Assembly (NCBI RefSeq): GCF_000981785.2
Contig: NZ_CP011304.1
Coordinates: 2,250,001-2,282,000 of the forward strand
Reading direction: 5' to 3'
Origin: Microcystis aeruginosa NIES-2549
GTDB lineage: Bacteria > Cyanobacteriota > Cyanobacteriia > Cyanobacteriales > Microcystaceae
DNA: 32,000 nt
Numbering within the stretch: position 1 is the stretch's first letter; the number at the start of each line of letters is the position of its first letter. A program made the translations under genes and the position numbers. Shown piece by piece: positions 7,543 to 31,615 of this stretch. Below the pieces are notes generated by a model. It was not told where the DNA came from, did no database searches, and worked only from the letters and a program-made list of their open reading frames with translations.

Positions 7543-7549
7543 GCCCTCT

Positions 7550-9799: not shown

Positions 9800-10015
9800 T
9801 AATTAGGGTTTGCGGCAAAAAGTTTTTCGTGGGGGTAGGGTGTGGGGTGTGGGGTGTGGGGTTTTACCGATTTTCAGGTGGTCAATTACCTAATTTTCAG
9901 GGAAAAAGTCAAAATTTCGCCCCGATCACTCCAATGGCTGGCATTTTTTGATCTCAAAAAAGTCTAAAAGTCTTATCCCACAAGGTTTTTAGATTTAATC
10001 AGCCAACCCTAATTA
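9800..10015 (+). mobile_element. MITE copy C. Core is 9806-10009, flanked by the direct repeat TAATTA (9800-9805 and 10010-10015).
   Basis: Same family as copies B and E, with about 3.5 GGGGTGT heptamers (9836-9862). The right flanking repeat contains the stop codon (10013-10015) of the 1154-aa gene. Confidence 0.85.
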
Positions 10016-13000: not shown

Positions 13001-13477
13001 TTTGGATGGATTTGAGGTTTTTAGCCAAAACTCGGCTTCTGACGGGGCTAAACTATAGGCTTCTAATTCTACCGGTTGACCTTGGCTATTGCGACCGATG
13101 AGCAGAAAATCGCGATAATTGCTGACTAATACTTGACCGTATTTTTGCCAGTATTTTTGTACTTGTTCGCTGGCGGCGATTTTTTTGATATCTTCTTTGG
13201 TTCCCTTAATCTCGATCGCACCTCTTTCGGGAAAAATCGCCGTAAAAGGTTCTAATTCTTGATTTTTGGGGAATTGATCGACGTTAAAAAGTCCCCCGTC
13301 CGGCAATCCCGCACCCTGATTTCTGAGGTTGATAATGCAGCGTACTCGCGGTTTTAGGGTTTTACCGATTTCGTTGAGGAGAGTTTCAAGAGTGCCGTAG
13401 TAAGAGGTTTCTTTTACTGCTGCTTGGGAGGAGTGGATTTCTTGCAGGTTGCGAAAATAATTAACGAGGGGATTCAT
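10013..13477 (-). CDS. Single-chain restriction-modification enzyme candidate. It combines an N-terminal PD-(D/E)XK-like domain, a gamma-class N6-adenine DNA methyltransferase and a type ISP-like C-terminal specificity domain, with no helicase/ATPase module.
   Basis: 1154-aa ATG ORF. Motif I is YILDPCCGTGAYL (about 12291-12330) and motif IV is VILGNPPYNAF (about 11907-11936), preceded by WYTPPEIV. The N-terminus has LPD (D codon 13298-13300) ... GAIEIKG (K codon 13205-13207). The C-terminal WEYTIGGYQVIKKWLSYREEKLLGRGLT matches my memory of the type ISP C-terminal domain signature. Confidence 0.75.
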   Translation of the reverse strand: MNPLVNYFRNLQEIHSSQAAVKETSYYGTLETLLNEIGKTLKPRVRCIINLRNQGAGLPDGGLFNVDQFPKNQELEPFTAIFPERGAIEIKGTKEDIKKIAASEQVQKYWQKYGQVLVSNYRDFLLIGRNSQGQPVELEAYSLAPSEAEFWLKTSNPSKFAAEHGDSLLEYLKRVLLQAAPITSPADVAWFLASYARDAKARLEHHSDLPALANIRQALENALGIKFEREQGNKFFRSTLVQTLFYGLFSAWVLWHKQNLNREDKEDKFDWKSAAHHLHVPMLAILFEQIAAPSKLKSLGLVEVLNWTGAALNRVRREEFFRQFDEGQAVQYFYEPFLQAFDPDLRKELGVWYTPPEIVRYMVARVDRVLREELNIEDGLANPDVYILDPCCGTGAYLVEVLRYITDTLQENGAGALAMALVKKAAIERIFGFEILTAPFVVAHLQLGLFLQSLGVPLIEDSERVGIYLTNALTGWQPPDEESKQKIQQLQLSFPELNKEREAADEVKRGKPILVILGNPPYNAFAGTSPAEEAGLVELYKQGLISDWGIKKFNLDELYVRFFRLAERCISENTGKGVVCYISNFSYLGDPSFVVMRQRFLQEFDRLWFDCLNGDSRETGKLTPEGNPDPSVFSTQYNKEGIRVGTTIGLMVRKEVRNKNVDVYFRHFWGVAKREQLLDSLNNQDFDSLYQVSNPEQSNRYSFRPSDVSSHYLAWPKLTDLSDEAPITGYKENRGYSFIDSDKTILSERISKYFDQNVSWEELASLNTGLTKDAARFDAKKARDKVLKLREKFNPQMLLPYLLRPYEVKWCYYTQIRPLWNESRPSLFIHQFQGNSFLVSRPAGVASPEGIPFYFTNCLGDFDFIRGHAYHFPIRLRQNSEKVKTEDNTQGKLFDSSNLNIPSIKANLSEKSRQYLNELGINNLDENIENASLIWLHSLAIGYSPLYLGENADGIRQDFPRIPLPNSQELLIKSAELGQVIASLLDTEKPVIGVTKKPTPALQKIALISCTDGGNLNPDKGDLIINVGWGHGGKNGVTMPGKGKAIARQYTTAEMSVISPEMRKLLGTTTYDIYLNDRAYWQNIPVRVWEYTIGGYQVIKKWLSYREEKLLGRGLTIAEVQEVSEMTRRITAIILLESDLDDNYQNIKTAVYSF

Positions 13478-13578
13478 GAGTAATAAAGTAATAGGACAAA
13501 ATTAACTTCTTGGTTAGGATAGGCAAAAGGCAAAAGTATGTGTAATTAATTGTGTCTAGCTACTTAAAAAGTGTAGTC

Positions 13579-13655
13579 TAGATAGGGTTGGCCGAAAAAG
13601 TTTTTCGTGGGGACGGATTGTGGGGTGTCGGTCGTCGATACCCAATTAGGTTACA
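13579..13655 (+). mobile_element. Truncated MITE fragment (copy D): left end only.
   Basis: TAGATA then GGGTTGGCCGAAAAAGTTTTTCGTGGGGAC...GTGGGGTGT matches the left 60-75 nt of copies B, C and E. There is no matching right end and no second TAGATA. Confidence 0.6.
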
Positions 13656-13718
13656 CTTCATCTTAAGAAAGGCTGTCACCAGCGATGGTATATTTTGGCC
13701 ATAGTATAGCTCGCTAGT

Positions 13719-15905
13719 TTAGATTTGTTCAATTGGAGAAATAAGATTAGATAAAATTTCGTTCCATTTTAATTTATGAATAGTTTGTAATTCCGAATCT
13801 ATTTCAATTAGATGGGAATAGCTATTGACAAATTCTTCTGGAGATGATATCAGTCTCAGATAATATTTAATTGTCGGTATAATACCATTGGTGATTATTT
13901 GACAACCATGGTTGTTTTTGATAGTTTGAATCTCAGACATGATTAACTCCACTTCTGTGGGTTTAACATCAAACGATGATAGGATATAATATCTTCTCGG
14001 ATTAAATTTAATAATTTTATCTTTGGCAATTCGGAGAATTTGTAAATCAATGTACTTACCATGCTTAATTTCAATAACTTCTACTAATTGTTTATTTTTA
14101 TCAAAAATCTCAATATCTCCTGCACTACCAGAAGTTAGATCAGAAGCTGTGTGACTGCCTAGAGGTTTTAATGTGCAGGATTTGTATCTTTCTACTTCTA
14201 TAATTAACCTTTGATAAATTGCATATAGTGCTAAAACAGGTAATTTGGAAGCTCCGCGAGTTTGATAATTGAAACTAAAATGATTTTCTAGGCAACTGCT
14301 CAAAGTGTTGATATCAAAAGGTTCAGGATTATCTATCTTCAAAATTTTAATCTTTTGAGTCTGGATAATCTGATTAACTTGATGAAGTAAAAGCGTTAAA
14401 ATAACTTCAGCTTGTTGAGGATTAGTTTCAATAAAATCAATTAAACCCAGAAAAGCATCTTTGGTTTTTTGATTACTAATTTTACCTTGATAATCTAAAG
14501 TATAGGGAAAGGGTTGTTCTAAAGAACGAGTTAGCCAGCCACTTTCTGCCATAGCTGGTAATCCCAATTGTTTCAAGGTGGGAGTAATATACTGAGTATC
14601 AATAGTTCTTCCTGAAAATCCTCCAGGTAAATTAGTTTGATGGTATCTAATATCTTGATTAGGATAGAGAATTTTATGAACTAATAAAGTTATTAAAACC
14701 GTATAAACTCCCTTTTTTTTTGAGCAATTAGTAGCAATTTGTTGGATATAGTTTTGATAGGGTTGAGGGAGCAGTGGTTGCCGATCATCTAAATTTAAGG
14801 ATTGGTCATAAATGTCTAATAACTTTTCTTTATGGTTCATAAAATCTAATCCGATAATTTCCAATTGAATATTCTGACGAGAAAAAGAAAACTCCTTTAA
14901 GGATACTCTAGAATTGTTTTCAAAAATATGTTTCTTAATGGCAATAGCCAACTCTTGAATCATGGGAATACAAACCGAATTACCCACCTGTTTATAAGAC
15001 TCAGCTAAGTTAGGATGAATTTGAAAACTATCGGGAAACTTCATCAGTCGATAGCATTCTTGTATAGTTAATTTACGCACCTGATCTTGTTCGGGTATAT
15101 AAATAAAAAAACGTCCAGATGTTTCCTGAGATGGTATAGTAGGATGTACTCCATCGATCGAATAAATTCGGTTAGGTTGATGATGAACCCGGGATAAATG
15201 TTCTGTATTTGGTCTGATACCTTTTTTCCAGATAGTTTTATTGCGATAACCGACAAAAATTAATCCTGATGGTTGTAAGGTAGGATTATCAATGAGAGTA
15301 TATTCTTTTTTATCTAAGTATTCAAAATTGCCTTGAGGAGACAGAAAATCGCGTAACTTAGGTATTGGTGAAGTATATTTTAATGAGTTGAAATTAAATT
15401 TTTTATTTTGGGTAGCAATAATAATAATTCTTTCTCGATTTTGCGGCACACCAAAATCCTTGGCATTTAAGAGCTTATAATCAACTAAATAACCCAGTTC
15501 TTCCAAAGAATGCAAAATAATATCTAAGTTTTTGCCTTTGTCGAGGTGAATTAGGTGTTTAACATTTTCCAGAAGAATTATTTTCGGCTTTTTTAATTCT
15601 ACTATTTCGCAGATGTGAAAAAATAGAGTTCCCCTTGTATCTCTAAATCCGGCTCGTTTTCCAGAAATGCTAAAGGGTTGACAGGGAAATCCTGCTGTCA
15701 ACACTTCAAAATCAGGCAGGTCATGGATAGCAATTTTTCTAATATCTTGATCGGGAATTTCTTGAAAATTATTGAAATATACTTTTCGACAGTTTTCGTC
15801 TATTTCACAAGAATATACACAGTCATAACCAACGCTCTCGAAAGCTAATCTAAATCCTCCAATACCAGCAAAAAGATCGATAAATCTGAGTTTTTCGTTT
15901 GTCAT
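13719..15905 (-). CDS. DNA (cytosine-5)-methyltransferase fused in frame to a C-terminal domain of about 390 aa that carries a PD-(D/E)XK-like motif (predicted endonuclease).
   Basis: The ORF is open to TTG at 15911; the ATG at 15905 gives MTNEKLRFIDLFAGIGGF. The m5C motifs are complete and in order: FAGIGGF, GFPCQPFS, LLENVKHL, QNRERIIII, ECYRLMKFPDSF and GNSVCIP. The C-terminal part has GDIEIF (D codon 14115-14117) ... VIEIKHG (K codon 14064-14066). The gene is very AT-rich (13 G+C out of 60 at 14041-14100). Confidence 0.8.
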   Translation of the reverse strand: MTNEKLRFIDLFAGIGGFRLAFESVGYDCVYSCEIDENCRKVYFNNFQEIPDQDIRKIAIHDLPDFEVLTAGFPCQPFSISGKRAGFRDTRGTLFFHICEIVELKKPKIILLENVKHLIHLDKGKNLDIILHSLEELGYLVDYKLLNAKDFGVPQNRERIIIIATQNKKFNFNSLKYTSPIPKLRDFLSPQGNFEYLDKKEYTLIDNPTLQPSGLIFVGYRNKTIWKKGIRPNTEHLSRVHHQPNRIYSIDGVHPTIPSQETSGRFFIYIPEQDQVRKLTIQECYRLMKFPDSFQIHPNLAESYKQVGNSVCIPMIQELAIAIKKHIFENNSRVSLKEFSFSRQNIQLEIIGLDFMNHKEKLLDIYDQSLNLDDRQPLLPQPYQNYIQQIATNCSKKKGVYTVLITLLVHKILYPNQDIRYHQTNLPGGFSGRTIDTQYITPTLKQLGLPAMAESGWLTRSLEQPFPYTLDYQGKISNQKTKDAFLGLIDFIETNPQQAEVILTLLLHQVNQIIQTQKIKILKIDNPEPFDINTLSSCLENHFSFNYQTRGASKLPVLALYAIYQRLIIEVERYKSCTLKPLGSHTASDLTSGSAGDIEIFDKNKQLVEVIEIKHGKYIDLQILRIAKDKIIKFNPRRYYILSSFDVKPTEVELIMSEIQTIKNNHGCQIITNGIIPTIKYYLRLISSPEEFVNSYSHLIEIDSELQTIHKLKWNEILSNLISPIEQI

Positions 15906-15938
15906 TGCCAAATTATGACATCAAAGAAATTAATCAAT

Positions 15939-15974: not shown

Positions 15975-18900
15975 TTACACCGAAGTTAAGGTTTTCTCCG
16001 CGCTAATTTGCGCTTCGGGACTATCCGCTTCCGAGGGAGGGACTACTTGCCAGAATTGACCGAGATAGCTATCCCAATTAGCTAAAATTAACTTACCTTT
16101 GGGGCTATTAGTGCGTTCTACATGGGCCTCAATTAAAGATTTTAACTGTTCCGCACCGGCAGCCGTGGCAACCCGTTGAATCTTGACAATTTCGGGGTTG
16201 AGTTTCTCCGGTAGGGACGGATCGAGGATATAAGCTAATCCTCCCGTCATCCCGGCGCCGACGTTGCGACCGACGGAACCAAGCACGACAATTACCCCCC
16301 CGGTCATATATTCACAGAGGTGATCCCCGGCCCCTTCGATAACCGCTTTCGCGGTGGAATTGCGGACAGCAAAGCGTTCACCAGCGCGACCATTAGCGTA
16401 TAACACCCCACCGGTGGCCCCGTAGAGACAGGTATTACCGATAATAGCGTTATCTTCGGGCTGATAATTGGCGTTTTGGGGCGGTAAGATGACAATTTCG
16501 CCGCCGTAGATGCCTTTACCCACATAATCGTTAGCTTCTCCCTCTAAATGGAGATTGACACCGGGTAAATTAAAGGCTCCGAAACTTTGACCGGCCGCAC
16601 CCTGGAAATTGAGCTTAATTTCGCCTTCAAAGCCGTCATTCCCGTATTTTTGGGCAATTACCCCCGCAATTCTCGCCCCGACAGAGCGATCGGTATTGAC
16701 AATCCTGTAGGTTTTGCTGACGGTTCCCTGTTGCTCGATCGCTTGTTTAATCTCGCTATCGGCTAGAATATCGTCATCGAGAACAGCACCGTTACTATGT
16801 ACTTCCTCGTGCTGCAACCAAGAGCGATCGCCACGGCCATCGGGTAAATTCAATAAACAATCAAGATTGAGGGATTCTGTCTTAGTTAAACGAGCATCGG
16901 AGCGCACTTTTAACAGATCTGCTCGGCCAATCACCTCATTTAAACTGTGATAGCCTAATTTCGCTAATAATTGCCGCGTTTCCTCAGCCACCAAAGTAAA
17001 GAAATTGACCACATGAGCGGGAATTCCTGGAAAACGAGCGCGGAGACGTTCCTGCTGGGTAGCGACTCCCACAGGGCAATTATTCGTGTGACAGACGCGG
17101 GCCATGATACACCCCTCGGCAATCATGGAAATGGAACCAAAACCGAATTCCTCCGCACCCATCACGGCAGCCATGAGGATATCCCAACCGGTTTTCAGTC
17201 CCCCATCTGCACGCAAAATCACCCGATGACGCAGTTGATTTTCCATTAACATCCGATGCACTTCCGTTACTCCCAATTCCCAGGGACTACCCGCGTGTTT
17301 GATCGAACTTAGGGGTGATGCACCTGTACCACCATCGTGGCCAGAAATCTGGATAATATCAGCGTTAGCTTTGGCAACTCCGGCCGCAATTGTGCCGATA
17401 CCGATCTCGGCCACTAATTTGACGGAAACTTTGGCCCGGGGGTTAATTTGGTGTAAATCGTAGATTAATTGTGCTAAATCTTCGATCGAGTAGATATCGT
17501 GGTGAGGAGGGGGAGAAATCAAGGTAACACCAGGTTTTGATCGCCGTAACATGGCAATATAGGGACTAACTTTTTTCCCGGGTAATTGACCTCCTTCTCC
17601 CGGTTTTGCTCCCTGGGCCATTTTAATCTCTAGCTGTTTTCCACTCATTAAGTATTCGGGAGTGACTCCAAAACGTCCCGAAGCTATCTGTTTAATGGCA
17701 GAATTAGCTGTATCACCGTTTTTTAAGCCGTTTAGGTGGGGCATGGTCACGGAATGTCCCTCGGCATCCACATCGCTTAAGCTGGTGTAACGGATCGGAT
17801 CTTCTCCCCCTTCTCCAGAATTGGACTTACCTCCGATGCGATTCATGGCGATCGCTAGGGTTTCGTGTGCTTCCCGGCCCAAGGCACCGAGGGACATTCC
17901 CCCTGTGCAGAAGCGTTGCAGGATACTTTCGATCGATTCTACTGCTTCGAGGGGAATTGAGGCTCGATCGCTGTTAAATTCTAATAAGTCGCGCAATGCA
18001 GTAACGGGTCTTTCCTGCAAGATTTGACGATAGGTTTCGTAATGGTCATATCCTTCCCCTTGGGAGTGAGCGGCCACGGCTTTATGGAGTGCTTTCGCCA
18101 TTTCCGGGGAATTCATGTGGTATTCTCCCCCCGGACGGTAGTTGACAAAACCGTAGTTTTCTAGTTTTTTAGCGGTAAGATTGGGGAAAGCTTTACTGTG
18201 GAATGCGATCGCTTCTTGGGCCACCTCAGCAATGCTTAAACCCCCGACGCGACTGGTAGTACCGTTAAAAGCTAGTTTAACTAAATCTGCCGACAGACCG
18301 ATCGCCTCGAAAATTTGCGCCCCATGGTAGGAAGATAGGAGAGAAATACCCATTTTCGAGAGGATTTTCAGTAATCCTGCTTCTACGGATTTGCGGTAGT
18401 TAATTAGGGCTTTTTCGAGGCTAATAGCTTCTAATTTGCCGTTTTCCATCAATTTCTGGGTTTTTGGCTCGATCCACCACTGGGCGATCGTTTCTAGGGC
18501 CAGATAGGGACAAACTGCGGAAGCGCCATAACCAATTAGACAAGCGAAGTGATGGGTACTCCAACACTGGGCCGTGTCGATCACGATCGAAGCTTTTAAA
18601 CGCAAGTGTGAGCGAATCAGGTGATGATGGACGGCACCAACAGCTAATAAGGGGGGAATATAGCTAGTTTTTTCGTCAATAGGAGCAGTTCTGTCACTGA
18701 GAATTAAAATTTCTGCTCCCGATTCTACTTTCTTGGCGGCCTCAGCGCACAAATTAGCGATCGCGGTTTCTAATCCCCCCGGTCCGGTGGTCAGATCATA
18801 AAGGGTAGAAAGTTCGGCTGTTTTGTAGCTAGAGGTTTTAACTTTGGCTAATTCCGCATTATTGAGCAGGGGAGAGTCTAATTTCAGTAAATGTGCGTCA

Positions 18901-22214: not shown

Positions 22215-22500
22215 CTACTTATTAAACTTCTGAAATCCTAGAGTGAGCAAGGAATCCAGTTCTTTTTTATGTTTCAGATGGGCATCATTCAGACATTCAT
22301 AAATAGTTGAAGAAAAGTCGGAAAAGTTTTCATAATATTTACCATATAAACATTTCTTTTTGACAAATTTCCACAGGCTTTCAATTAAATTTAGATTAGG
22401 CAATAAGACGGCAGATAGAGTAATTCTATTGACAAAGAAAGAGCCAATTATTCAACAATTTTACATTTTTGATAGCGGGCATTATCTAATACTAGAGTGA
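22215..22500 (-). pseudogene. IS630-family transposase remnant: C-terminal catalytic part only, frameshifted.
   Basis: The minus strand reads TLVLDNARYQKCKIVE then a stop. After a frame change it reads ELLYLPSYC, then PNLNLIESLWKFVKKKCLYGKYYENF... to the stop at 22215. The DNA..H/Q and PxLNxIE motifs are the second and third catalytic-residue regions of IS630/Tc1 transposases. The N-terminal two thirds are absent. Confidence 0.75.
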
Positions 22501-22908
22501 TTTGAGGAAAAAATGCAAGTTATAGCCGTGCAAAGTATAGCTCAAGAGAGCATAGGCTATGATCGCAATCACAATATTAACATCAAATATGTTTGCTCCA
22601 CCAGATGAAGCAGGGCTAATGAATAAGGTGGAAAATGGCTCAATGAAAGGTGCAGATAGATGATTAATCAACTGAGCAAATTGATTTTGTGGGTTCGCAC
22701 CAAACAAACGCAGCAAGAACCTCATTACCAGTGGTATTTGCACTATTCCTGCCAGCACGAAAATGCTATTAATTATCCAATTTAAGGTATTACTTCGTCT
22801 GGCAGATCGCAGGCGTTTCTCTTCTTGATCAAGTCGAAAAGCCTCTTCATCATGTAGCAGTTCTTGTCGCCGCTCAAGATTGGTTTCATCATCCCGATCG
22901 TGATTCAT
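22492..22908 (-). CDS. YggT-family membrane protein with a charged N-terminal extension. Its 3' end abuts or overlaps the IS630 remnant.
   Basis: 138-aa ATG ORF. The segment MRFLLRLFGANPQNQFAQLINHLSAPFIEPFSTLF...IFDVNIVIAIIAYALL fits the YggT pattern (R.LL..F.aNp...F...i...t.P...PF). The last roughly 10 codons may derive from IS sequence. Confidence 0.55.
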   Translation of the reverse strand: MNHDRDDETNLERRQELLHDEEAFRLDQEEKRLRSARRSNTLNWIINSIFVLAGIVQIPLVMRFLLRLFGANPQNQFAQLINHLSAPFIEPFSTLFISPASSGGANIFDVNIVIAIIAYALLSYTLHGYNLHFFLKSL

Positions 22909-23048
22909 TCTTAGACCTCAGAGTCAATATTTTTCTGATTTATAGCAGTTCTCACATCTGTGTGGCACACTTAAACCTTTGCTGATTAAGCTTTTCAATA
23001 TCGATAATGTACCTCGTGCGAACAGGAAACGCTATAAATAAATTCTCC

Positions 23049-23079
23049 AATCAGTGGCGGGTACAAGCCACCACTGATT
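23049..23079 (-). terminator. Hairpin downstream of the cyanophycinase gene.
   Basis: AATCAGTGG (23049-23057) pairs with CCACTGATT (23071-23079) around a 13-nt loop. The minus-strand tail is GGAGAATTTATTTAT. Confidence 0.4.
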
Positions 23080-23091
23080 GTTCCCTCCGAC

Positions 23092-23955
23092 CTACTCCCT
23101 TTCAACTTCTGCCTCCTTTTTAGGATTGCTATCCTTTAACTCTATTGATCGAGAGAAAACGGGCTTGCGAGTTTTCAAGTTAAAGCGGAATCCTTGAGGT
23201 AAGATGTGCAACCTGACTCCACACACTGCCATCGCTTCATCTTTGAGCAGTTCGTCTAAATTATCATAAGTTGCTTCTGATTCATCGACAACTGTTATAG
23301 CCCCACGCCCCACCACTTTAAATTCGTCACCGTCCACAATTACTGCTGTATCTTCGTCAATGCCAAAGCCTAAGTTAGCTGGCTGCTGTAAGAGAGCGGA
23401 AATCAGGCGACCTAGCCGTCCGCGCTGGGCAAAATGCTGATCGATCACCACTGAGTGCAGAAATCCCATTCCCGGACCCATATCTATCGCGTCCATGCGT
23501 GGGTTGGTTTCGGAGTCTCCTTCAATAATCATCAGATCGGGCATTATGGCAGCACCGGCACTTGTCCCACCTACCACCATTCCCTCCCGATTGCGTTGGT
23601 GAAGTAAGGTATCTAGCTGAGTTCCCTTGATGTGTTCAATGATTAGGGCTTGATCTCCCCCGGTAAAAAACGCTCCTGTGGCTTCCTCAATGATTTTCAG
23701 GTTTTCTGGATCGTCGGCATCTTCCCTGTGAATGGTATCGAGGACACGCACATCCTCGACACCGAGTCGCTCAAACACTCGGGTATAGGCTTCTCCAGCC
23801 GAACGAGGCTCACTTGTTGCCGCCGTTAACACGGCAATTTTAGCTTTAGTCCCGCCAGCACAGCGAACAAACTCTCGCAAGATTTGACAATCTCCTTCTT
23901 TGTCTTCTGCTCCACCAATGATGATTAATTGCCCGCGCTCTTTTGTAGATTCCAT
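23092..23955 (-). CDS. cphB: Cyanophycinase (S51 peptidase).
   Basis: The ATG at 23955 is preceded by AAGGAG at 7-nt spacing; the longer ORF to 23985 starts at GTG. Motifs present are LIIIGGAEDK, FFTGGDQ, GGTSAGAA (nucleophile Ser) and VIDQHFAQRGRLGRL. Confidence 0.88.
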   Translation of the reverse strand: MESTKERGQLIIIGGAEDKEGDCQILREFVRCAGGTKAKIAVLTAATSEPRSAGEAYTRVFERLGVEDVRVLDTIHREDADDPENLKIIEEATGAFFTGGDQALIIEHIKGTQLDTLLHQRNREGMVVGGTSAGAAIMPDLMIIEGDSETNPRMDAIDMGPGMGFLHSVVIDQHFAQRGRLGRLISALLQQPANLGFGIDEDTAVIVDGDEFKVVGRGAITVVDESEATYDNLDELLKDEAMAVCGVRLHILPQGFRFNLKTRKPVFSRSIELKDSNPKKEAEVERE

Positions 23956-24057
23956 ACAAAAACTCCTTGTTAAACTAAACAGCACAACAACATAAATTTA
24001 AATTATGATCGTTCACACCTCCCCTACCCAATACCGTTCGGTTGAGCCAACCAGCCA

Positions 24058-24104
24058 CCACCCCTCTCTTATCTCCCCTTTCAGGGGAGATAAGAGAGGG
24101 GTGG
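24058..24104. other. Perfect 21-bp inverted repeat (hairpin) without a U-tract.
   Basis: CCACCCCTCTCTTATCTCCCC (24058-24078), loop TTTCA, then GGGGAGATAAGAGAGGGGTGG (24084-24104). It lies 10 nt downstream of the small membrane-protein gene. The minus-strand tail TGGCTGGTTGG is not U-rich. Confidence 0.85.
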
Positions 24105-24114
24105 GAATGAATAA

Positions 24115-24264
24115 TTACCGTCGCCTCATAAACAAGTTGTAGACAACGCCAATCAGCACCAAAACCAAAAGCAGGTGGATTAAGCCGCCGCCAATGTTAA
24201 CGGAGAATCCTAACAACCAGAGGATGAAAAGTATAACAACGGCAGTCCAAACGAGATCGAACAT
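24115..24264 (-). CDS. Small (49 aa) two-helix membrane protein, lmo0937-like family.
   Basis: It is not in the ORF track because it is shorter than 60 aa. ATG at 24264 and TAA at 24115-24117. It translates to MFDLVWTAVVILFILWLLGFSVNIGGGLIHLLLVLVLIGVVYNLFMRRR. The LWLLGF...GGLIHLLLV...RRR pattern matches the small stress-associated membrane protein family I recall under that name. Confidence 0.65.
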   Translation of the reverse strand: MFDLVWTAVVILFILWLLGFSVNIGGGLIHLLLVLVLIGVVYNLFMRRR

Positions 24265-24314
24265 ATTTCCCCCCTTGATTTAGAGAAAAGTGATGGAAAT
24301 TCAGTCATCGATAC

Positions 24315-24794
24315 TTAATTGAGGATATCTTGAACCTGATCTTTCACATCTTCTACTGCATTGCGAACTTGGCTTTCGACTTGTTTAGCTTTTCCAGCAA
24401 CTTGATCTTGGCGGTTGCCAGTAGCTTTACCTATCGCTTCTTGAGCTTTGCCTTCAATGTTTTTTGTGACTGCTTTTGCCCTCCCTTTTAACTTCATCTG
24501 GTCTTTTATATCTTCTGCTGCGTTACGAGCCTGACTTTCGACTTGCTTGGCTTTTCCCATCATCTGATCTTTGGGATCGCCTGTCATGTTGCCAATCGCT
24601 TCTTGAGCTTTGCCTTCAATATTTTTCGTAACTGCCTTGGCTCGATTCATGCTGGCGATTTGAGTCTGCGGTTGGGTGGGTAAAGTTGCAGCCCAACTAT
24701 TTGTAGTTCCAAAATCAAAAGCTATAGTAATTGCCAGCATTATAGTTAAAATAATGGTGACAAAAAAGCGACGAATCTGTTGAAGTGACATCAT
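24315..24794 (-). CDS. Secreted or membrane-anchored protein with two tandem CsbD-like domains.
   Basis: 159-aa ORF with an N-terminal hydrophobic signal or anchor (FFVTIILTIMLAITIAF). Two near-identical repeats follow: KAVTKNIEGKAQEAIG..TG...DQ..GKAKQVESQ.RNA.ED.KDQ. Confidence 0.85.
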   Translation of the reverse strand: MMSLQQIRRFFVTIILTIMLAITIAFDFGTTNSWAATLPTQPQTQIASMNRAKAVTKNIEGKAQEAIGNMTGDPKDQMMGKAKQVESQARNAAEDIKDQMKLKGRAKAVTKNIEGKAQEAIGKATGNRQDQVAGKAKQVESQVRNAVEDVKDQVQDILN

Positions 24795-25083
24795 TTTAAA
24801 TCCAAAAAAAAAATTGATGAATCGATTATATATGGATGATGAACAACTACTGTCTAGACCCTTTCGAGAAAGATTTTTCTAGTCTTTGACGGTGTAAGTT
24901 TACCGAGGGAGAGATCTTCGACTTCTTTGAGAAGCTAGGTATCTGGTGATATTGGGTTTATTTACGCCGCCTCGTCCTAGTGTTTCACCTGTCTCGAAAG
25001 AAACCATTTTTTGAGGAAGACTTCCGATGAAAGCCTGGTTTCAATCATTTGTCTGAATGGCGGTTGCTGTGACAAACGACCTA

Positions 25084-25266
25084 CTAATCAATGATTTTTT
25101 TGACTTCATCTTTCACATCTTCGATAGTGTGACGAACTTTTGCCTCTGCCTGTTTTTCCTTGCCCTCTGCTTGAGCTTTGGGATCGCCAGTTAGATCTCC
25201 TACTGCTTCTTGAACTTTACCTTCGATATTTTTGGCGGTTGCCTCGGTTCTATCTTTTAAGCTCAT
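25084..25266 (-). CDS. CsbD-family general stress protein.
   Basis: The 60-aa ORF reads MSLKDRTEATAKNIEGKVQEAVGDLTGDPKAQAEGKEKQAEAKVRHTIEDVKDEVKKIID, the canonical CsbD pattern. Confidence 0.88.
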   Translation of the reverse strand: MSLKDRTEATAKNIEGKVQEAVGDLTGDPKAQAEGKEKQAEAKVRHTIEDVKDEVKKIID

Positions 25267-25437
25267 GATGCTCTCCTTATTGAATTTGTTGGATTTGAGA
25301 ACTGCTTACCTAAGTTGAGCTAACAATTCTGCTTCTGGCATTACTGTAACGGGTGGTTGTTTGATTTACTGTATGAATTGATTGAGTCTGTATGAATTGC
25401 TTGAATACGACACAAAATGTAACGGGCGATGCACGAG

Positions 25438-26214
25438 TTAAACTCCATCGACTTTACCCGTCAGACGCTCATCAAACTTCTGCTCATAATCGGGGTCTTG
25501 AGTTCCGAGGAGTTTGTCCCAGAACGTGAAATATAGACCGTAATGTACGGTGTACTTGCGATGATGAATGGAATGATGGGCAGGACCAATAAACCACCGA
25601 CCCAACCAATGATGGGGAAATGAGGAAGGCAAGCGATCGATCCCAAGATGATTTAACACTGCCCAGATCGTCATCGTGGTGAGTGCCGCAATTAACGTGA
25701 TGAAATGCAGGGGAAGGACAAAGACAATGCCGACCAGGAAGAGAGACTGAACGATCGCCTCTAGTGGGTCAAAGGCAAACGAAGTCCACGGGGTAGGATA
25801 GCGCGAGCGATGATGCCCCTGGTGTAACCACCGAAAGAGTGACGGGTGGTGAAACAAGCGATGGGTGAAATAGAAATAGGCATCCTGGAGAACCAACACA
25901 GCGCCATAACTAACCCCTAAATAACACAGCCCATACTGTTGAGGGTGGCTGTATAAGCGGGTAATGCCCCAACTGTATCCTGTTATGATGAAAGCCGCCG
26001 CCAGCGCAAACACCCCCGCCGAAAGAACCGAGAGCGTGATATCTTGTTGAATCGATCGCCAAGAGGGAGACCAATGCCGCAGGTTGTGATTGACAAAGGA
26101 CTGACTCAAGGGCGAATAGAAGAACAAATAGGTTCCCCCAGCCACGAGAAAGTATCGCGCCAGGATGATCCCAAAGAAAGCGAACCCGTAAAATCCAAAT
26201 GAGTGGTCTATCAA
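25438..26214 (-). CDS. Membrane di-iron oxygenase of the fatty-acid hydroxylase / sterol desaturase superfamily.
   Basis: Three His boxes are present (HRLFHH, HQGHHRS, HHSIHH) in a polytopic membrane protein. The track ORF reaches TTG at 26277 and has no ATG. I prefer the TTG at 26212-26214, which is preceded by AAGGAG at 6-nt spacing and lies 1 nt after the NACHT stop codon. Confidence 0.8.
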   Translation of the reverse strand: MIDHSFGFYGFAFFGIILARYFLVAGGTYLFFYSPLSQSFVNHNLRHWSPSWRSIQQDITLSVLSAGVFALAAAFIITGYSWGITRLYSHPQQYGLCYLGVSYGAVLVLQDAYFYFTHRLFHHPSLFRWLHQGHHRSRYPTPWTSFAFDPLEAIVQSLFLVGIVFVLPLHFITLIAALTTMTIWAVLNHLGIDRLPSSFPHHWLGRWFIGPAHHSIHHRKYTVHYGLYFTFWDKLLGTQDPDYEQKFDERLTGKVDGV

Positions 26215-26215
26215 T

Positions 26216-28525
26216 TTAATCTCCTTGCCATTCCCGATCTTCCAAGTCCTTTTGAGGTAACAGCAACGTGGCTTCAATTTCTTGCCGGATTGCGGCTGTT
26301 ATTTCGCAGTTACTATTCAAACAATCGATCAGGAGTTGATTGGCCTCATAGTAGCGTTGGAGCAGCTGCTGTTGCTCAGTCGTAAACTGCCAGGGGTGAT
26401 GAATATTGCGATAATTGGCGATCGCACCCCGCAACTGTTCCACCCAGGCAGAATAGTTTTTCTGCCACCAGTGCTGAAGCCGTTCCAGGTTTTGACTCGG
26501 AGGTGGCAGTTGGTCTCTCAATTGTTGCAAAGACTTATAAAATCCAGCATCCAGAACCATCACCAGAATGTTGTTGAGTGCCTCGCTACAAGCATTGACG
26601 TATGCAAAATCCTGACTGTGGTCGATGGCAAACTCTACCAGCAAGTTCTCCAACGCCGCATCTAAAAACATCCCCTGATCGAGCGTGCTGGCTAAGGCAA
26701 AGCGATCTGCCGTATGCGGGCTTTGGGCAAGGGCAAGGTAAAATGCGCGTGCGGTCGCCACTTTGGTTTCGTCTGGGAGCTGCTGGGATTTTTGGCTGGC
26801 CCAACTCAAAAACTCTTGCAGATAGGAGTCTTGCGCGACTAAGGCATCAATTTGTTGCTTCATCAACTGCACCAGCGCATCTGCACTTCGCAACATGGCA
26901 GCCGTTAACAAGAAGACTTCGCGCCAGTGGGAATCGGTGATGTGACTCACCAACCCTCCCAGTGCTTGTTCTAATGCCTGCAAATTATGGCTGGCAACTA
27001 TTTTTCGAGCCGTGAAGTATTCTTGAAATGCCAGATAAGAAAATGAAAAAATGCCTCGCGCCCTTTCTGTGAGGATTCCATGCTGTGCCTCGATCGCTTT
27101 CAGCATGGCTTCGCTTTCGAGTTGGAGTTCCTCTGCTTCCAGGGTTGCACCTGGCAAATTCCGCAAATAGTCGCCAATGTATTGCTCAATCGTGCGTTGC
27201 TCAAAAAAATACTGCCCCTGTTCAAAAGTCACTGCTGCAAGCTGGCTCAACAGCTTCAATTTTTGGGGCAATAAAAACCCCCGGTAAACCTGATCGCGTT
27301 CGACTCCTCGAGCTTCATCCCATTTACCCAGCAGCAAATCCAGCCCTTGTTTATAAAACTCAGCCCGCTTGCTCGGAAATTTCCCTTGACCCTGAAACAC
27401 CCAGCAGGCGAGATGCAGAAACAGAGGTGTCACCACCAGTTGCCGAAATTGCCAGTTTTCCGGCAAGTCCAACTTCTCCATAAACTGAGCCGACTGCTCC
27501 TGCCCCGCTTGAGCAGTCGTTTTGCTCAGTGCCACAAACCACTTTTGCGCGAAGGTGCTGATTTGTGCCTGGGTAAAGGGGGCAATTTCTACATCAGTGA
27601 AACCTCGAATCTGGAGTTTTTGGGCAGCGGTGCGACAGGTTACTACAAATCGATTGCGATGATACTTTTCTGAGAATTGGCGAATTTCTCTCAGAACTGC
27701 TGTAATGTCCTGGTTGAGAACTTCATCCATGCCATCGAGCAACAGCAGGACTCTGCCCGCTTGCAGTAAGGTTTCCAGCACAGACGGGTTGGAAATTCCC
27801 GAGGTGAGCAATGCCTGACGGATGTAGTTGAACAGGCTAAATTCACCCCTGGGACTGGACTCCTCGGCAAATTCTCTCAATAAGATAAAAATCGGCACTT
27901 GATTCGCCGCAAACTCGCCTTGGTTGCACTGAATCGCCAGATGTTGCAAAAAGGTCGTTTTGCCAACCCCCGGCCTGCCCAAAACTCTAAGCTTTGAGTA
28001 AGTTTCAACAGCCTGCATTCCGGGTATTTGCTTCTGCTCAACCTCTCCCAAGCCGACGCGATCGAATTCAGCGGGACCCAAGTTTTGCCAATCGGCAATC
28101 TCCACCCACTGTTGACTGGCAATTTCCGCCAAAATATTGACATCCACATAGATGTCATCAATGCTGACTGGATGGCTGATGTCTAGTAACTGCAAGATGC
28201 CGCACTGGTTTTGGATGGTGTCCAGGCGTTGCGCTCGCACCTCTTGCACCAGAGCATCAATATTAGTTTTCGCCAGTTCTCCGGGTTCAGGAAATTCTGC
28301 GGGCGGAGCGAGGGCAATCTCCCGCCAATCCAAATCCAGAATCGAACAAATTTCCAGGAAAACCTGGCGATCAACGGGTTTTCCTGTGAAAAACCGCCAA
28401 ATCGGCTGGCGGGTCTTTAAGTTCACTTCCCCTGCTAGATTTTCCTGAGTCCACCCCTTGAGCGCAAAGGCTCGTTTAGCCTGTTTAATTCCCGAAGGGG
28501 AAGCCTGGAGCGATCTCTTGACCAT
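26216..28525 (-). CDS. STAND NTPase: N-terminal XRE-like HTH, NACHT P-loop domain and a C-terminal helical domain of about 400 aa, with no WD40/TPR repeats.
   Basis: The ATG at 28525 (MVKRSLQASP...) is preceded by GGGAGG; the track start at 28534 is TTG. The HTH-like N-terminus is GIKQAKRAFALKGWTQENLAGEVNLKTRQPIWRFFTGKPV. Walker A is GRPGVGKTTF (about 27950-27980) and Walker B is LLLLDGMDEV (about 27720-27750). TCR and the downstream NACHT helical motifs are present. Confidence 0.85.
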   Translation of the reverse strand: MVKRSLQASPSGIKQAKRAFALKGWTQENLAGEVNLKTRQPIWRFFTGKPVDRQVFLEICSILDLDWREIALAPPAEFPEPGELAKTNIDALVQEVRAQRLDTIQNQCGILQLLDISHPVSIDDIYVDVNILAEIASQQWVEIADWQNLGPAEFDRVGLGEVEQKQIPGMQAVETYSKLRVLGRPGVGKTTFLQHLAIQCNQGEFAANQVPIFILLREFAEESSPRGEFSLFNYIRQALLTSGISNPSVLETLLQAGRVLLLLDGMDEVLNQDITAVLREIRQFSEKYHRNRFVVTCRTAAQKLQIRGFTDVEIAPFTQAQISTFAQKWFVALSKTTAQAGQEQSAQFMEKLDLPENWQFRQLVVTPLFLHLACWVFQGQGKFPSKRAEFYKQGLDLLLGKWDEARGVERDQVYRGFLLPQKLKLLSQLAAVTFEQGQYFFEQRTIEQYIGDYLRNLPGATLEAEELQLESEAMLKAIEAQHGILTERARGIFSFSYLAFQEYFTARKIVASHNLQALEQALGGLVSHITDSHWREVFLLTAAMLRSADALVQLMKQQIDALVAQDSYLQEFLSWASQKSQQLPDETKVATARAFYLALAQSPHTADRFALASTLDQGMFLDAALENLLVEFAIDHSQDFAYVNACSEALNNILVMVLDAGFYKSLQQLRDQLPPPSQNLERLQHWWQKNYSAWVEQLRGAIANYRNIHHPWQFTTEQQQLLQRYYEANQLLIDCLNSNCEITAAIRQEIEATLLLPQKDLEDREWQGD

Positions 28526-28554
28526 ACAATCCAATCCTCCCTATCGAGTCAGAA

Positions 28555-30123
28555 TCAGTTCTGGTTGGGACGACCAGAAACTTCTAAGGGATCGTAGCCT
28601 AGTTGTTGAGTAATCCGTTCTCTGGCTAAGGCCCGGTACTCCCAAAAATGTTCTCCCGCCGCGCACAGACCTAAATAGAGATTGAGAACTTGGGGCTTTT
28701 TTTGCCAAATCGTCCATAATTGCCGCCAAAACTGTCCCCGAATGTTCCCTCGGCGGATACCCTGATGCCAGATTAACTGGGTAATTAGCCGTAACCCCTT
28801 ACCCACGGGAAATTGCATGGTTTGCTTGTGTTTTGACTGCAAACCCAGACCGAGACATTGTTGGAAACAGCGTCGGAGATAGTGGCTGGGTTCGTACAGC
28901 GTCCAGAAGCCTTCGACATACTCTCTGGCAATTTCGGCAATCGGGCGGGTGGGGATAAAATTCATCAAGCTATTCTGATCTCCCGTCGGATGGATGCTGT
29001 CACCCTCAACTAAACGCTGTTCTTGCTGGAGACGATGCCAAAGAGCCGTATTCGGCAAAGATTGGAGAATTCCTAACATGGGCTGAGGAATACTGGTTTC
29101 TTCCACAAAGGCTTGAATCCTTTCCCCCGCACCAGAGCGCTCTCCATCAAACCCCAAGATAAATCCAGCATAGATTAGCAAACCGGCTGCATTAATCTTA
29201 CGACAGGCTTCCACCAGTGGATTGCGAGTATTTTGCAGTTTGCGCGTCACTTGCAGACTATCTTGGTCAGGAGTTTCAATCCCCAGAAAGACAGAATAAA
29301 ACCCCGCCTCAGCCATCAGGCTTAACAATTCATCATCCTCTGCCAAATTGACCGAGGCTTCAGTAATAAAGGTGAAGGGATAGTCGTGCTGCTTCATCCA
29401 GGGAATCAAGTCTCTGAGAAAGCGTTTGACGTTGCGCTGATTGCCAATAAAGTTGTCATCGACGATGAACAACGAACCGCGCCAGCCTAGGTCGTAGAGA
29501 GTCTGCAATTCTGCTAAAGTCTGACTCGGCTCTTTAGTACGAGGTTTGCGCCCGTAGAGGGAAATAATGTCGCAAAATTCGCAGTTAAAAGGACAGCCGC
29601 GAGAGAACTGCACTGCCATCATTAAGTAATCGTCTCGCTGAAGTAGGTCAAAGCGGGGGATGGGGCTGAGGGTCACGTCTGGCTTGTCCCCAGAGCGGAA
29701 AATTCCCTGGCTTTGACCTTGAGCGATCGCCTCCAAAAACAGGGGAACGGTTAACTCTCCCTCATCCAAAATGAGATAGTTCGCTCCAGAATCCAGGGCA
29801 TCCTGGGGGACAGAGGTGGGGTAGGGACCGCCAACGGCGACTTTTTTGCCTAACTGCACGGCTTTTTGAATCAGAGCTTGAAAATCTGGCTTCTGGACTA
29901 ACATGGCAGAGAGGATAACCAACTCACACCACTCCCAATCGGCTTCTGTTTCAGGATTGACGTTGCGATCATAAAATCGAATCTCCCAGTTTTGGGGGAG
30001 GAGGGCGGCGACAGTAATGATGCCGAGGGGTGGAATGGTGGCTTTCAGTCCCGCGATTTCCATAAAGCGATCGTAAGACCAGAAAGACTGGGGAAACTCA
30101 GGGTAGAGTAACAGGGCTTTCAT
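28555..30123 (-). CDS. Cobalamin-binding (class B) radical SAM enzyme with a DUF4070-like C-terminal domain.
   Basis: 522-aa ATG ORF. It has an N-terminal B12-binding-type Rossmann region (PPLGIITVAALLP...VILSAM...VAVGGPYPT) and the radical SAM cluster motif SRGCPFNCEFCD (about 29569-29605). The C-terminal W/F-rich helical region (FWRQLW...HFWEY) is typical of DUF4070 as I recall it. Confidence 0.88.
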   Translation of the reverse strand: MKALLLYPEFPQSFWSYDRFMEIAGLKATIPPLGIITVAALLPQNWEIRFYDRNVNPETEADWEWCELVILSAMLVQKPDFQALIQKAVQLGKKVAVGGPYPTSVPQDALDSGANYLILDEGELTVPLFLEAIAQGQSQGIFRSGDKPDVTLSPIPRFDLLQRDDYLMMAVQFSRGCPFNCEFCDIISLYGRKPRTKEPSQTLAELQTLYDLGWRGSLFIVDDNFIGNQRNVKRFLRDLIPWMKQHDYPFTFITEASVNLAEDDELLSLMAEAGFYSVFLGIETPDQDSLQVTRKLQNTRNPLVEACRKINAAGLLIYAGFILGFDGERSGAGERIQAFVEETSIPQPMLGILQSLPNTALWHRLQQEQRLVEGDSIHPTGDQNSLMNFIPTRPIAEIAREYVEGFWTLYEPSHYLRRCFQQCLGLGLQSKHKQTMQFPVGKGLRLITQLIWHQGIRRGNIRGQFWRQLWTIWQKKPQVLNLYLGLCAAGEHFWEYRALARERITQQLGYDPLEVSGRPNQN

Positions 30124-30182: not shown

Positions 30183-31615
30183 TTAGCGAGAAACAATTAA
30201 ACCGTTAGAACGACGAATTAACTGAATCTTACTAACAGTTATCTGTCCCAATCGTTGACCATTGGCATCGCTTACAGATAGCTGTTTTTCGGTATCTCCA
30301 CTCACATAACCAATTCCTTTGGGAGAAGAAATTAAATCTCCTTTACGGAACCCATGTCTTGTGGTAGAGCCACATTTACGTCGTTTACCACCTTACAACT
30401 ATGTCTGCTTCTTTATTGGAGGGGAATATACCGATGATCGAGTGAATATTTGTCATGAATTTCCTGTTTTTAGTACATAATTAGATTATATCTAACATTC
30501 CGCAGATCAGATTCCACTTCATAAATATCCCTCTTTGGGAGTATCTCATTTATGCAAGTGAGTAATTATATTTATCCATAAAACTGGTTTCTAGCAAGGC
30601 TTTCAAAATAGCTTGACATAAAAACCTGATTTAGGGGTTACAAAGGTGAGATGCTCCCTCCCTCTTAGCAATGCCATCGTTAGCATGACTTTCTGGTGAT
30701 TGTTCTGCTTTATTTTTGGACTTTTCTAGTCGCAAATATTTTCTGAGATTAGAGGTTTGCCAACCAAAGCGAGTATGGACTGTTGCCAATTGAGATAGTT
30801 GCTCAATCGCCCATTTCTCTCCGACCATAACTGGCGAGAAACCTTTTCCAGACTTAGCTCCTTTTCTACTGGAAGTTAGATCAATATCGGTTTTGACATA
30901 CTCAAAGTAAATGTCAGTAATTGGATAGATTTTGGTTAGTTCAGAAACGTCTCGACTTCGCTCGACGTTGACGATTAGCTCTGATTGAGGGAGCTAATTT
31001 TCCTTGTCTTCTATTTGAAAATCGTTTTTGTCGATGCGCTCTTAGATTAAGGGGAAGTTGGCGGTTAATCCGTCTTTTTCTACGTCCTCTTCGCATTAAG
31101 CAGCGATTGTCTACGCGCTCTCTTACTCGCTTAAAAGGAAGTTCTAAGTGAGCCTTCCAAAGAGTAAAAAGGGAGGATTGAACGCCAATTCCAGAGAATA
31201 ATTTACCCCGGTCAATACCAATAGCAATCGGTTGGGTTTTGCTATCGGAAGGTTCAGTGGTTAGCTGGACATAGAAAATATCTAGGGTCTGCTGAAAAAG
31301 TTTTTCGTGGGGGCAGGGTGTGGGGTGTGGGGTGTGGGGTGTAGGGTTTTACCGATTTTGAGGTAGTCAGTTACCTAATTTTCAGGAAAAAAGTCCAGGA
31401 ATTTTACCCCCGATCACTCCAATGGTAGGCACTTTTTGAGGGGAAAAAAGTCTAAAAGCCTTATCCAACAAGGTTTTTAGATTTATTCAGCCAGCCCTAT
31501 CTAAGTCGTTGAATTTACCGATAGCTTTTCCTTCCTTAATCCACCGTCTGGCCCGACTGGGTTTGGTGGGCATCAACGGTTTTCCGTCTTTTGAGATAAC
31601 AGGAACTCTTGCCAT
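30183..31615 (-). pseudogene. Decayed IsrB-like (HNH-less IscB; OMEGA / IS200-IS605-associated) RNA-guided nuclease gene. It is interrupted by MITE E, one frameshift and a non-coding replacement of about 225 bp.
   Basis: The N-terminus from ATG 31615 is MARVPVISKDGKPLMPTKPSRARRWIKEGKAIGKFNDLD (PLMP domain). Beyond the MITE it continues IFYVQLTTEPSDSKTQPIAIGIDRG (RuvC-I), followed by an Arg-rich bridge (RRGRRRKRRINR...RFSNRR..LAPSIRA). After a frameshift near 30950-30985 it reads ELTKIYPITDIYFEYVK (RuvC-II), with no Cys/His HNH block, then SHANDGIA (RuvC-III). The segment 30411-30650 is non-coding. The C-terminal TID-like end is HGFRKGDLISSPKGIGYVSG...LIRRSNGLIVSR, with the stop at 30183-30185. 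Confidence 0.7.
31279..31503 (+). mobile_element. MITE copy E. Core is 31285-31497, flanked by the direct repeat TATCTA (31279-31284 and 31498-31503). It is inserted in the IsrB-like gene.
   Basis: Same family as copies B and C, with about 4.5 GGGGTGT heptamers (31313-31345). Removing the core plus one TATCTA restores the IsrB reading frame exactly (…GKFNDLDIFYVQL…). Confidence 0.9.

Follow-up and report, generated by a model that had tools for sequence, protein, structure and literature searches.

Bacterial NACHT proteins are established antiphage sensors that are abundant in cyanobacteria, and architectures with DNA-binding N-terminal 'adaptors' have been catalogued among these bNACHT proteins (bioRxiv 10.1101/2022.07.19.500537). 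The hopanoid C-2 methylase HpnP and a group of 'uncharacterized HpnP-like proteins' share B12-binding, radical S-adenosylmethionine (SAM) and DUF4070 domains, and many cyanobacteria have both (Hoshino et al. 2023, PMC10697835). The carotenoid hydroxylase CrtG and the ERG3/SC5D-type sterol desaturases are proteins of about 257–269 aa in the fatty-acid-hydroxylase / sterol-desaturase superfamily (PMC3324416, PMC10784355). In this study, a stretch of 32,000 nucleotides from Microcystis aeruginosa NIES-2549 (contig NZ_CP011304.1, positions 2,250,001 to 2,282,000; hereafter, the window) was analyzed, in which a gene for a cobalamin-dependent radical SAM enzyme (rSAM, gene 1), a gene for a NACHT-type STAND NTPase (NACHT, gene 2) and a gene for a membrane di-iron oxygenase (FAH, gene 3) form a compact same-strand unit on the minus strand at 30123–25438. 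To our knowledge, bacterial NACHT/NLR-like proteins are experimentally known so far only as antiphage sensors, and no description of the three-gene association was found in the literature searched. The reading that we favor, as possible but somewhat short of probable, is that a STAND-type switch is coupled here to two membrane lipid- or isoprenoid-tailoring enzymes in a stress-response neighborhood. The unit is composed of the following features.

28555–30123, minus strand: rSAM, 522 aa, with the CxxxCxxC motif at 29572–29595
28526–28554, minus strand: rSAM–NACHT spacer, 29 nt, after the rSAM stop codon at 28557–28555
26216–28525, minus strand: NACHT, 769 aa, with an ATG start at 28525
26212–26226, minus strand: NACHT–FAH coupling junction, with AAGGAG at 26226–26221, TAA at 26218–26216, 1 nt (26215) and TTG at 26214–26212
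25438–26214, minus strand: FAH, 258 aa, with a TTG start at 26214

The rSAM–NACHT spacer holds the Shine-Dalgarno sequence GGGAGG at 28541–28536, 10 nt ahead of the ATG at 28525, and the Shine-Dalgarno sequence of FAH, AAGGAG, lies within the final NACHT codons (...EWQGD), 6 nt ahead of the TTG at 26214. Reading of the sequence therefore confirmed what a first-pass annotation of this DNA had described, namely three same-strand genes with spacers of 29 bp and 1 nt and a separate Shine-Dalgarno sequence for each downstream gene. Its further claim, that this packing is more than chance, is strengthened because at least 10 lineages other than Microcystis keep the nucleotides of the NACHT→FAH junction, in the form of GGCAAGGAGAT-TAA-A-TTG or GAT-TGA-ATG (loci L103, L104, L106, L109/110, L112, L120–L123, L048 and L058). 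The in-frame TTG starts further upstream in the list of open reading frames (28534 for NACHT and 26277 for FAH) were rejected, as the homologue alignments begin at ATG 28525 and TTG 26214.

All three genes have a GC content of 0.50 and a GC content at third codon positions (GC3) of 0.54–0.57, which is the maximum in the window (other window genes, 0.23–0.51); the segment is thus compositionally distinct at the codon level, as had been noted, and the common GC and GC3 values are consistent with a shared history. Across orders, purifying selection on each of the three is strong. The genes are presumably co-transcribed; the counts of internal terminators and promoters in the operon were not above the shuffled expectation, and the Rfam search found no riboswitch or other structured RNA near the operon, the only matches being two distant tRNAs.

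The linkage of the three genes in other genomes was evaluated in a set of 80 species-level loci anchored on rSAM (3 from Microcystis and 77 others), and in a set of 65 evaluable non-Microcystis metagenome loci anchored on FAH. An orthologue of NACHT and/or FAH lies within 10 kb of rSAM in 5 of the 77 non-Microcystis loci (L036, L040, L048, L058 and L073), and one more of them (L021) has a NACHT remnant near rSAM. Around FAH, NACHT is immediately upstream in 12 of the 65 loci and elsewhere in the flank in 8, the remaining 45 having no NACHT in the flank; rSAM is nearby in 3. NACHT→FAH is the tight core of the association and rSAM is its looser member.

The arrangements in which the genes are linked differ among lineages. 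At L154/L155, the order is P-II-like→rSAM→FAH, where the stop codon of rSAM abuts the start codon of FAH and NACHT lies 1.6 kb upstream; the rSAM-coupled FAH of L155 and the FAHs coupled to NACHT form a single orthologue group. The rSAM gene is convergent with FAH←NACHT at L048 and L058, NACHT is divergent from rSAM at L036 and L073, and NACHT lies 6.2 kb upstream of rSAM on the same strand at L178. Overall, NACHT and rSAM are 2–9 kb apart in L036, L040, L048, L073 and L178, in tandem, divergent and convergent orientations. By chance, two given genes would be expected within 10 kb of each other in a 5–8 Mb genome in about 0.3% of cases; set against this value, linkage that recurs in no fewer than seven lineages and six arrangements speaks for a functional tie. 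The first-pass annotation had held that a lack of synteny in other genomes would speak against one functional unit, and linkage does recur among the three orthologue groups. A distinct rSAM-linked FAH subfamily was considered and rejected, since the FAHs of L155 and L168 are only 60% identical and the former groups with the NACHT-coupled FAHs.

The assignment of gene 1 as a cobalamin-dependent radical SAM enzyme with a DUF4070 tail was borne out by Pfam, with scores of 42.7 bits for B12-binding (PF02310), 52.6 bits for Radical_SAM (PF04055) and 167 bits for DUF4070, of which PF02310 and PF04055 are above their cut-offs. The cluster motif, CPFNCEFC at aa 177–184, is intact and agrees with the class B radical SAM criteria, and the scores of the NCBIfam class B equivalogs against rSAM are far under their cut-offs. 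Orthologues that are 78–89% identical occur in Nostocales, Oscillatoriales, Leptolyngbya-type cyanobacteria and Chroococcales; the same 522-aa protein is encoded on contig BJCJ01000013.1 of GCA_009811855.1, and the other Microcystis loci are 98–99% identical.

Gene 1 has the same three-domain order as HpnP, B12-binding, radical SAM and DUF4070. In Table S5 of Hoshino et al. (PMC10697835), HpnP is not detected ('ND') in four complete Microcystis genomes, in Calothrix PCC 7507 and in Richelia sinica. The rSAM orthologue is present in the latter two species (P0044 and L069), and in six genomes with HpnP the accession that these authors list for HpnP differs from that of the rSAM orthologue (in Phormidium CLA17, for example, MBM0743900 and MBM0743443, respectively). 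The identity of gene 1 with HpnP is ruled out by these two observations. Because HpnP is not detected in genomes where the orthologue is present and the accessions differ elsewhere, gene 1 is assigned to the uncharacterized cyanobacterial HpnP-like clade. This clade is found in at least one species reported without squalene-hopene cyclase, Spirulina subsalsa, where strain IAM M-223 is listed without the cyclase and rSAM is in a different strain, CS-330 (L083); in Microcystis, the cyclase is present. Hopanoid or carotenoid genes were not found as conserved neighbors across the rSAM loci, where only lineage-specific synteny was seen. The existence of the HpnP-like clade confounds the hpnP-based reading of 2-methylhopane biomarkers, and the coupling of rSAM to a specific oxygenase of the FA_hydroxylase family, together with its apparent independence from squalene-hopene cyclase, offers a testable handle on its substrate.

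Other neighbors of rSAM were also recorded. A paralogue that is 58–62% identical lies directly upstream of the rSAM orthologue at L023 (2978–4582), L058 (7829–9406) and L047 (1–339); it may be the true HpnP, that is, these loci may hold a tandem HpnP/HpnP-like pair. A 105-aa P-II-family protein (PF00543), which is not encoded in the window, is found directly upstream of or near rSAM in about 10 lineages (L154 1428–1748, L155 7990–8310, L021 5597–5923 and L168 1005–1331; also L028, L030, L033, L037, L050 and L056). In a 7.25-Mb genome (L178, 18536–21753), Psb34 and a gene for an orange carotenoid protein (Carot_N and NTF2) come after the rSAM orthologue.

The product of gene 2 matches NACHT (PF05729) with 69.1 bits against a cut-off of 26.7 and NCH2 with 123 bits, in agreement with its earlier description as a NACHT protein that ends in a helical domain. 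The Walker A motif, GRPGVGKTT (aa 183–191, 27953–27979), and the Walker B motif, DGMDE (aa 264–268, 27722–27736), are intact; the latter fits the D[GAS]hDE signature of Kibby et al. and is invariant in 33 orthologues. The orthologue profile matches the NACHT domain of NLRC4 (E = 1.2e-6). The C-terminus is all-helical and ends in NCH2 with an invariant CLNSNC motif and many invariant Trp and Cys residues. No sequence homologues of the full-length NACHT protein or of FAH were found in the PDB. Orthologues of NACHT, found in Gloeocapsa, Merismopedia, Geminocystis, Leptolyngbya, Pseudanabaena, Nodosilinea and Planktothrix, are 77–88% identical, with a uniform length of 767–781 aa and a mean column identity of 82% over the 33 orthologues, and this strong conservation makes the group unlike fast-evolving immune receptors.

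The bNACHT antiphage proteins described by Kibby et al. have the same combination of a NACHT domain with D[GAS]hDE and an NCH-type, non-repeat helical C-terminus. Unlike these proteins, gene 2 carries no nuclease, TIR, protease or EAD effector, and it represents a conserved, single-copy-like orthologue group in a stress and housekeeping neighborhood, coupled to a lipid-type oxygenase. The logic proposed for gene 2 is that of the STAND regulators MalT, AfsR and GutR, in which an ATP switch is combined with a helical sensor and a small DNA-binding domain; these proteins regulate a metabolic pathway and are encoded beside their target, as proposed here, but they sit in STAND clades other than NACHT and have a recognizable LuxR, SARP or other helix-turn-helix (HTH) domain.

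Within Microcystis, the NACHT gene is interrupted in some populations at the following site.

26604–26630, minus strand: insertion and assembly-break hotspot in the NACHT C-terminal region, in other Microcystis populations

On contig L101, a 145-bp insert resembling a miniature inverted-repeat transposable element (MITE), with the inverted repeats GGGACTTAG/CTAAGTCCC and a stop codon, lies in the NACHT gene at 7549–7693 (window, about 26604), and nine contigs from another sample (L002–L010) all end about 25 bp away, at about 26630 of the window. Because of this insert and these breaks, the NACHT gene is regarded as dispensable or polymorphic within Microcystis. In other genera, a 345-aa hemerythrin-domain protein and a small protein of no annotated family (237 aa in L176, 184 aa in L174) adjoin NACHT at 12485–14301 of L176 (the Geminocystis NIES-3709 chromosome) and at 2647–4321 of L174 (a Pseudanabaena ABRG5-3 plasmid).

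The product of gene 3 matches FA_hydroxylase (PF04116) with 101.5 bits, which places it in the fatty-acid-hydroxylase / sterol-desaturase superfamily. Its three His boxes are intact (HRLFHH at 25846–25863, HQGHH at 25810–25824 and HHSIHH at 25561–25578), and hydrophobic segments at about aa 6–32, 57–85 and 146–192 predict a polytopic protein. The earlier description of a polytopic His-box oxygenase of this superfamily is thus upheld on all three counts. Orthologues are 60–87% identical across cyanobacterial orders. The source databases label FAH homologues as 'Delta7-sterol 5-desaturase', and the names in IMG are ERG3-like rather than CrtG. CrtG, the 2,2'-β-ionone-ring hydroxylase of Brevundimonas SD212 and of T. 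elongatus (tlr1917), is a possible lead to the identity of gene 3 through its superfamily and size; however, FAH has stress proteins and an acyl-lipid desaturase as recurrent neighbors instead of crt genes, a search of the plasmid and phage collections gave no usable homologue in a crt cluster, and the tblastn matches of FAH in the plasmid collection are not in crt clusters.

A copy of FAH was also found on phage contigs, where the segment shared with the host is as follows.

25484–26355, minus strand: host segment in phage, comprising the last 44 NACHT codons, the junction and FAH codons 1–244 (872 bp, 97% identity)

This segment is carried by contig L102 (9860–10731) and by the IMG/VR contigs L180 (9860–10731) and L181 (2–367). 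The phage FAH is 97% identical over residues 1–244 and then has a new C-terminus. L180 is 95.3% identical to the Microcystis phage Mic1 over 89% of its length, and the insert, of about 1 kb, lies in the tail module of this Mic1-like siphophage between Mic1_32 and Mic1_31; FAH is absent from Mic1 itself, and NACHT was not found on any viral contig. Chimerism is argued against by the same junction occurring in three assemblies from different samples. As the phage carries FAH alone, the enzyme is more likely to work autonomously and to be of benefit than to be a suicide effector, and its capture makes FAH a candidate new auxiliary metabolic gene on a siphophage of a bloom-forming, toxin-producing cyanobacterium.

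Downstream of FAH, on the same strand, general-stress-type genes occupy 22492–25266 of the window, all assigned by Pfam.

25084–25266, minus strand: CsbD
24315–24794, minus strand: tandem-CsbD
about 24116–24265, minus strand: DUF5670
23092–23985, minus strand: Peptidase_S51
22492–22908, minus strand: YggT

Genes of this type recur elsewhere: CsbD, YflT, BON, YggT, Pmp3, PRC, holin-like, ferritin and hemerythrin genes lie beside FAH and/or NACHT in Crocosphaera (L172), a Pseudanabaena plasmid (L174), Geminocystis (L176) and loci L124, L132, L138, L143, L148 and L154/155. A gene for a DesC-like Δ9 acyl-lipid desaturase (280 aa) recurs near NACHT, FAH or rSAM in four lineages (L110 6670–7512, L040 11124–11963, L106 2320–3174 and L033 7927–8754). 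The intergenic region between FAH and csbD (25301–25437) contains a repeat of about 124 bp, further copies of which occur on Microcystis contig L101 at 13236–13348 and 16169–16292, and which is probably a small mobile or repeat element.

The favored reading brings these observations together as follows. The three genes would constitute a facultative cyanobacterial functional module, which became fused into a single operon in Microcystis. FAH would act as an O2-dependent membrane di-iron hydroxylase or desaturase, and rSAM, which would be O2-independent, would most likely C-methylate or otherwise modify an unactivated carbon of a hydrophobic substrate, so that the substrate tailored by the two enzymes may be a membrane lipid or isoprenoid, within a general-stress or membrane-remodeling response. 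NACHT would be a conserved STAND switch instead of an immune receptor, binding ATP, sensing a signal via its helical NCH2 C-terminus and controlling the pathway, most likely through a small N-terminal XRE-like DNA-binding domain according to the MalT/AfsR/GutR logic; translational coupling would keep it in fixed proportion to FAH. We infer the substrate class, the regulatory role of NACHT and its DNA binding. Of the two hypotheses offered in the first-pass annotation, the one that proposed a STAND regulator of a two-enzyme lipid-tailoring pathway gives the better fit in its overall form, with its HTH unproven and its shared operator not found. If the favored reading is true, this vertically conserved NACHT protein, with its coupling to a membrane oxygenase and its place in a stress cluster, would clearly exemplify a bacterial NACHT with a physiological function outside immunity.

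Several observations weigh against this reading. As for the linkage, the tandem triad is confined to the three Microcystis genomes among the 80 rSAM loci, and outside Microcystis about 71 of 77 rSAM loci lack both partners within 10 kb. For each of the three genes, the majority of orthologues stand alone, so that the synteny may partly be a relic and the tie is facultative. As for the substrate, hopanoids are unlikely to be obligatory because Pseudanabaena ABRG5-3, in which squalene-hopene cyclase is absent, has both FAH and NACHT. As for the regulator, some Microcystis populations have a disrupted NACHT gene or have lost it, from which it follows that FAH is not strictly dependent on NACHT.

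The observations on the DNA-binding domain fall on both sides. The N-terminal 80 residues of NACHT are nearly invariant and are predicted to contain a small five-helix domain at about residues 10–72. No Pfam family, whether of HTH type or other, was matched by the N-terminal 135 aa at E ≤ 1, and the profile search of the PDB with the N-terminus gave nothing significant. Alignment of the N-terminus by hhalign with 434 Cro-type HTH domains gave P = 0.02 in the expected register, and hhalign with XRE domains gave nothing significant. The AlphaFold models of the NACHT protein and of its N-terminal domain (pLDDT 50.7 and 51.3; five short helices) are both poor because the input was limited to orthologues that are 77–88% identical; in a Foldseek search with the N-terminal model, about 40 of the top 50 matches were XRE-type HTH domains, at E ≥ 1.1, none of them significant. 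The five-helix layout, the alignment with Cro-type domains and the kind of Foldseek matches speak for the favored reading, and the lack of significant sequence or structure support speaks against it; an XRE-like HTH at the N-terminus is thus plausible, though unproven. Of the 'HTH plus NACHT' module named in the first-pass annotation, the NACHT part therefore stands, and the HTH part has no Pfam or PDB sequence support and weak structural support.

Same-strand repeats of the motif wGTTTGAwTT were found upstream of NACHT orthologues at about −160, −110 (TTTTGTATGATTTC) and −45 from the ATG; 10 of 20 lineages have them, with 20 sites in total, where shuffled sequences gave 0.2. The arrays, in the 250 bp upstream, occur at L048, L104, L120, L122 and L178 and also at L124, L138, L155, L176 and L036, and are sometimes tandem-expanded. 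The same motif is present upstream of rSAM in 0 of 71 cases and of stand-alone FAH in 1 of 40, giving no shared operator, which also counts against the favored reading. It is absent upstream of the Microcystis operon as well; because the array of the other NACHT upstream regions is missing there, the placement of NACHT 29 bp after rSAM in Microcystis is a derived state that arose by fusion.

The alternative that survives best, though we consider it rather doubtful, is that rSAM is tied to the other genes by relic or fortuitous synteny only, the Microcystis operon being a lineage-specific juxtaposition, perhaps acquired as a block, in which only NACHT→FAH is meaningful. The low frequency of linkage around rSAM given above fits this explanation, as do the lack of a universal neighbor of rSAM across the rSAM loci and the replacement of the ancestral NACHT promoter region in Microcystis, and an allophycocyanin-like gene that recurs near both anchors hints at an old shared neighborhood. 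However, linkage that recurs in so many lineages and arrangements, including the abutment of the rSAM stop with the FAH start, is a poor fit to relic synteny in rearranged cyanobacterial genomes, and the three genes share their codon composition.

A second alternative, which we regard as unlikely, takes NACHT→FAH as a genuine two-gene unit in which NACHT acts post-translationally as a stoichiometric, ATP-dependent partner of FAH and rSAM is a looser associate. NACHT would then serve as a scaffold, an assembly or insertion factor, or an allosteric gate of the membrane oxygenase, and we give this form of the proposal the same low credence. A junction of 1 or 0 nt with the Shine-Dalgarno sequence inside the invariant C-terminus of NACHT (EWQGD), kept across orders, is typical of subunits made in a fixed ratio, while a regulator is seldom coupled in translation to the enzyme that it controls, so that this feature of the locus fits a stoichiometric partner better than the favored reading. 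The lack of significant support for an HTH, the lack of a shared operator and the invariant CLNSNC motif of NCH2 with its many invariant Trp and Cys residues also fit such a partner. The two proteins are nevertheless separable in nature: FAH stands alone in 45 of the 65 loci, the phage carries it alone, it persists where NACHT is disrupted, and NACHT occurs without FAH nearby at L176, L177 and L179.

The remaining alternative, which was the other hypothesis of the first-pass annotation, is an NLR-like antiphage system in which infection is detected by NACHT, and FAH and/or rSAM are the effectors that it sets off to damage membranes or alter metabolites; the FAH copy on the phage, still attached to the 3' end of NACHT, would then be a counter-defense decoy or antidote, a corollary as remote as the hypothesis itself. 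It draws on the antiphage role established for bacterial NACHT proteins and their richness in cyanobacteria, on the size and diversity of the wider NACHT family (2,307 clusters at 50% identity, E ≤ 1e-30), which includes many full-length paralogues at 38–50% identity, some with other, swapped N-termini, on a weak PADLOC match to the candidate family PDC-S60 (37.6 bits), and on the capture of FAH plus the NACHT 3' end by a Microcystis phage. If it were true, lipid- or metabolite-modifying enzymes would be a new effector class of bacterial NLR immunity, in place of nucleases, TIR domains or proteases. It is nonetheless very improbable, because the NACHT orthologues are vertically conserved across orders without arms-race diversification in sequence or length, the NACHT protein has no enzymatic or death-type effector domain in Pfam (NACHT and NCH2 only), neither FAH nor rSAM matches any defense effector family, no known PADLOC system matched any of the three proteins, the NCBIfam model EruA scored 25.5 bits against a cut-off of 1000, the genes nearby have stress or housekeeping roles both in the window and at over 20 loci, with the nearest restriction-modification genes more than 10 kb off, and a phage that carried a suicide effector without regulation in its tail module would harm itself.

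Remnants of other elements lie on both sides of the operon in the window.

30183–30305, minus strand: degraded RRXRR/HNH-type gene, C-terminal remnant, directly upstream of rSAM (PF14239 match on the 42-aa product)
31487–31615: RRXRR/HNH-type gene, N-terminal fragment (from the translation of the open reading frame)
22215–22403: DDE_3 transposase C-terminal fragment, 62 aa, downstream of yggT (below the Pfam cut-off)

The statement that the operon is flanked by insertion-sequence remnants is therefore loose, as a degraded RRXRR gene adjoins the operon upstream and the DDE_3 fragment is 3 kb and five genes downstream. Farther away, at 10013–15911 of the window, a Type ISP-like restriction-modification gene (N6_Mtase and Type_ISP_C, 1154 aa) stands beside a gene for a 730-aa C-5 cytosine methylase; with a GC content of 0.32–0.40, the pair has the look of a defense islet, and gltB and other genes lie between this islet and the operon.

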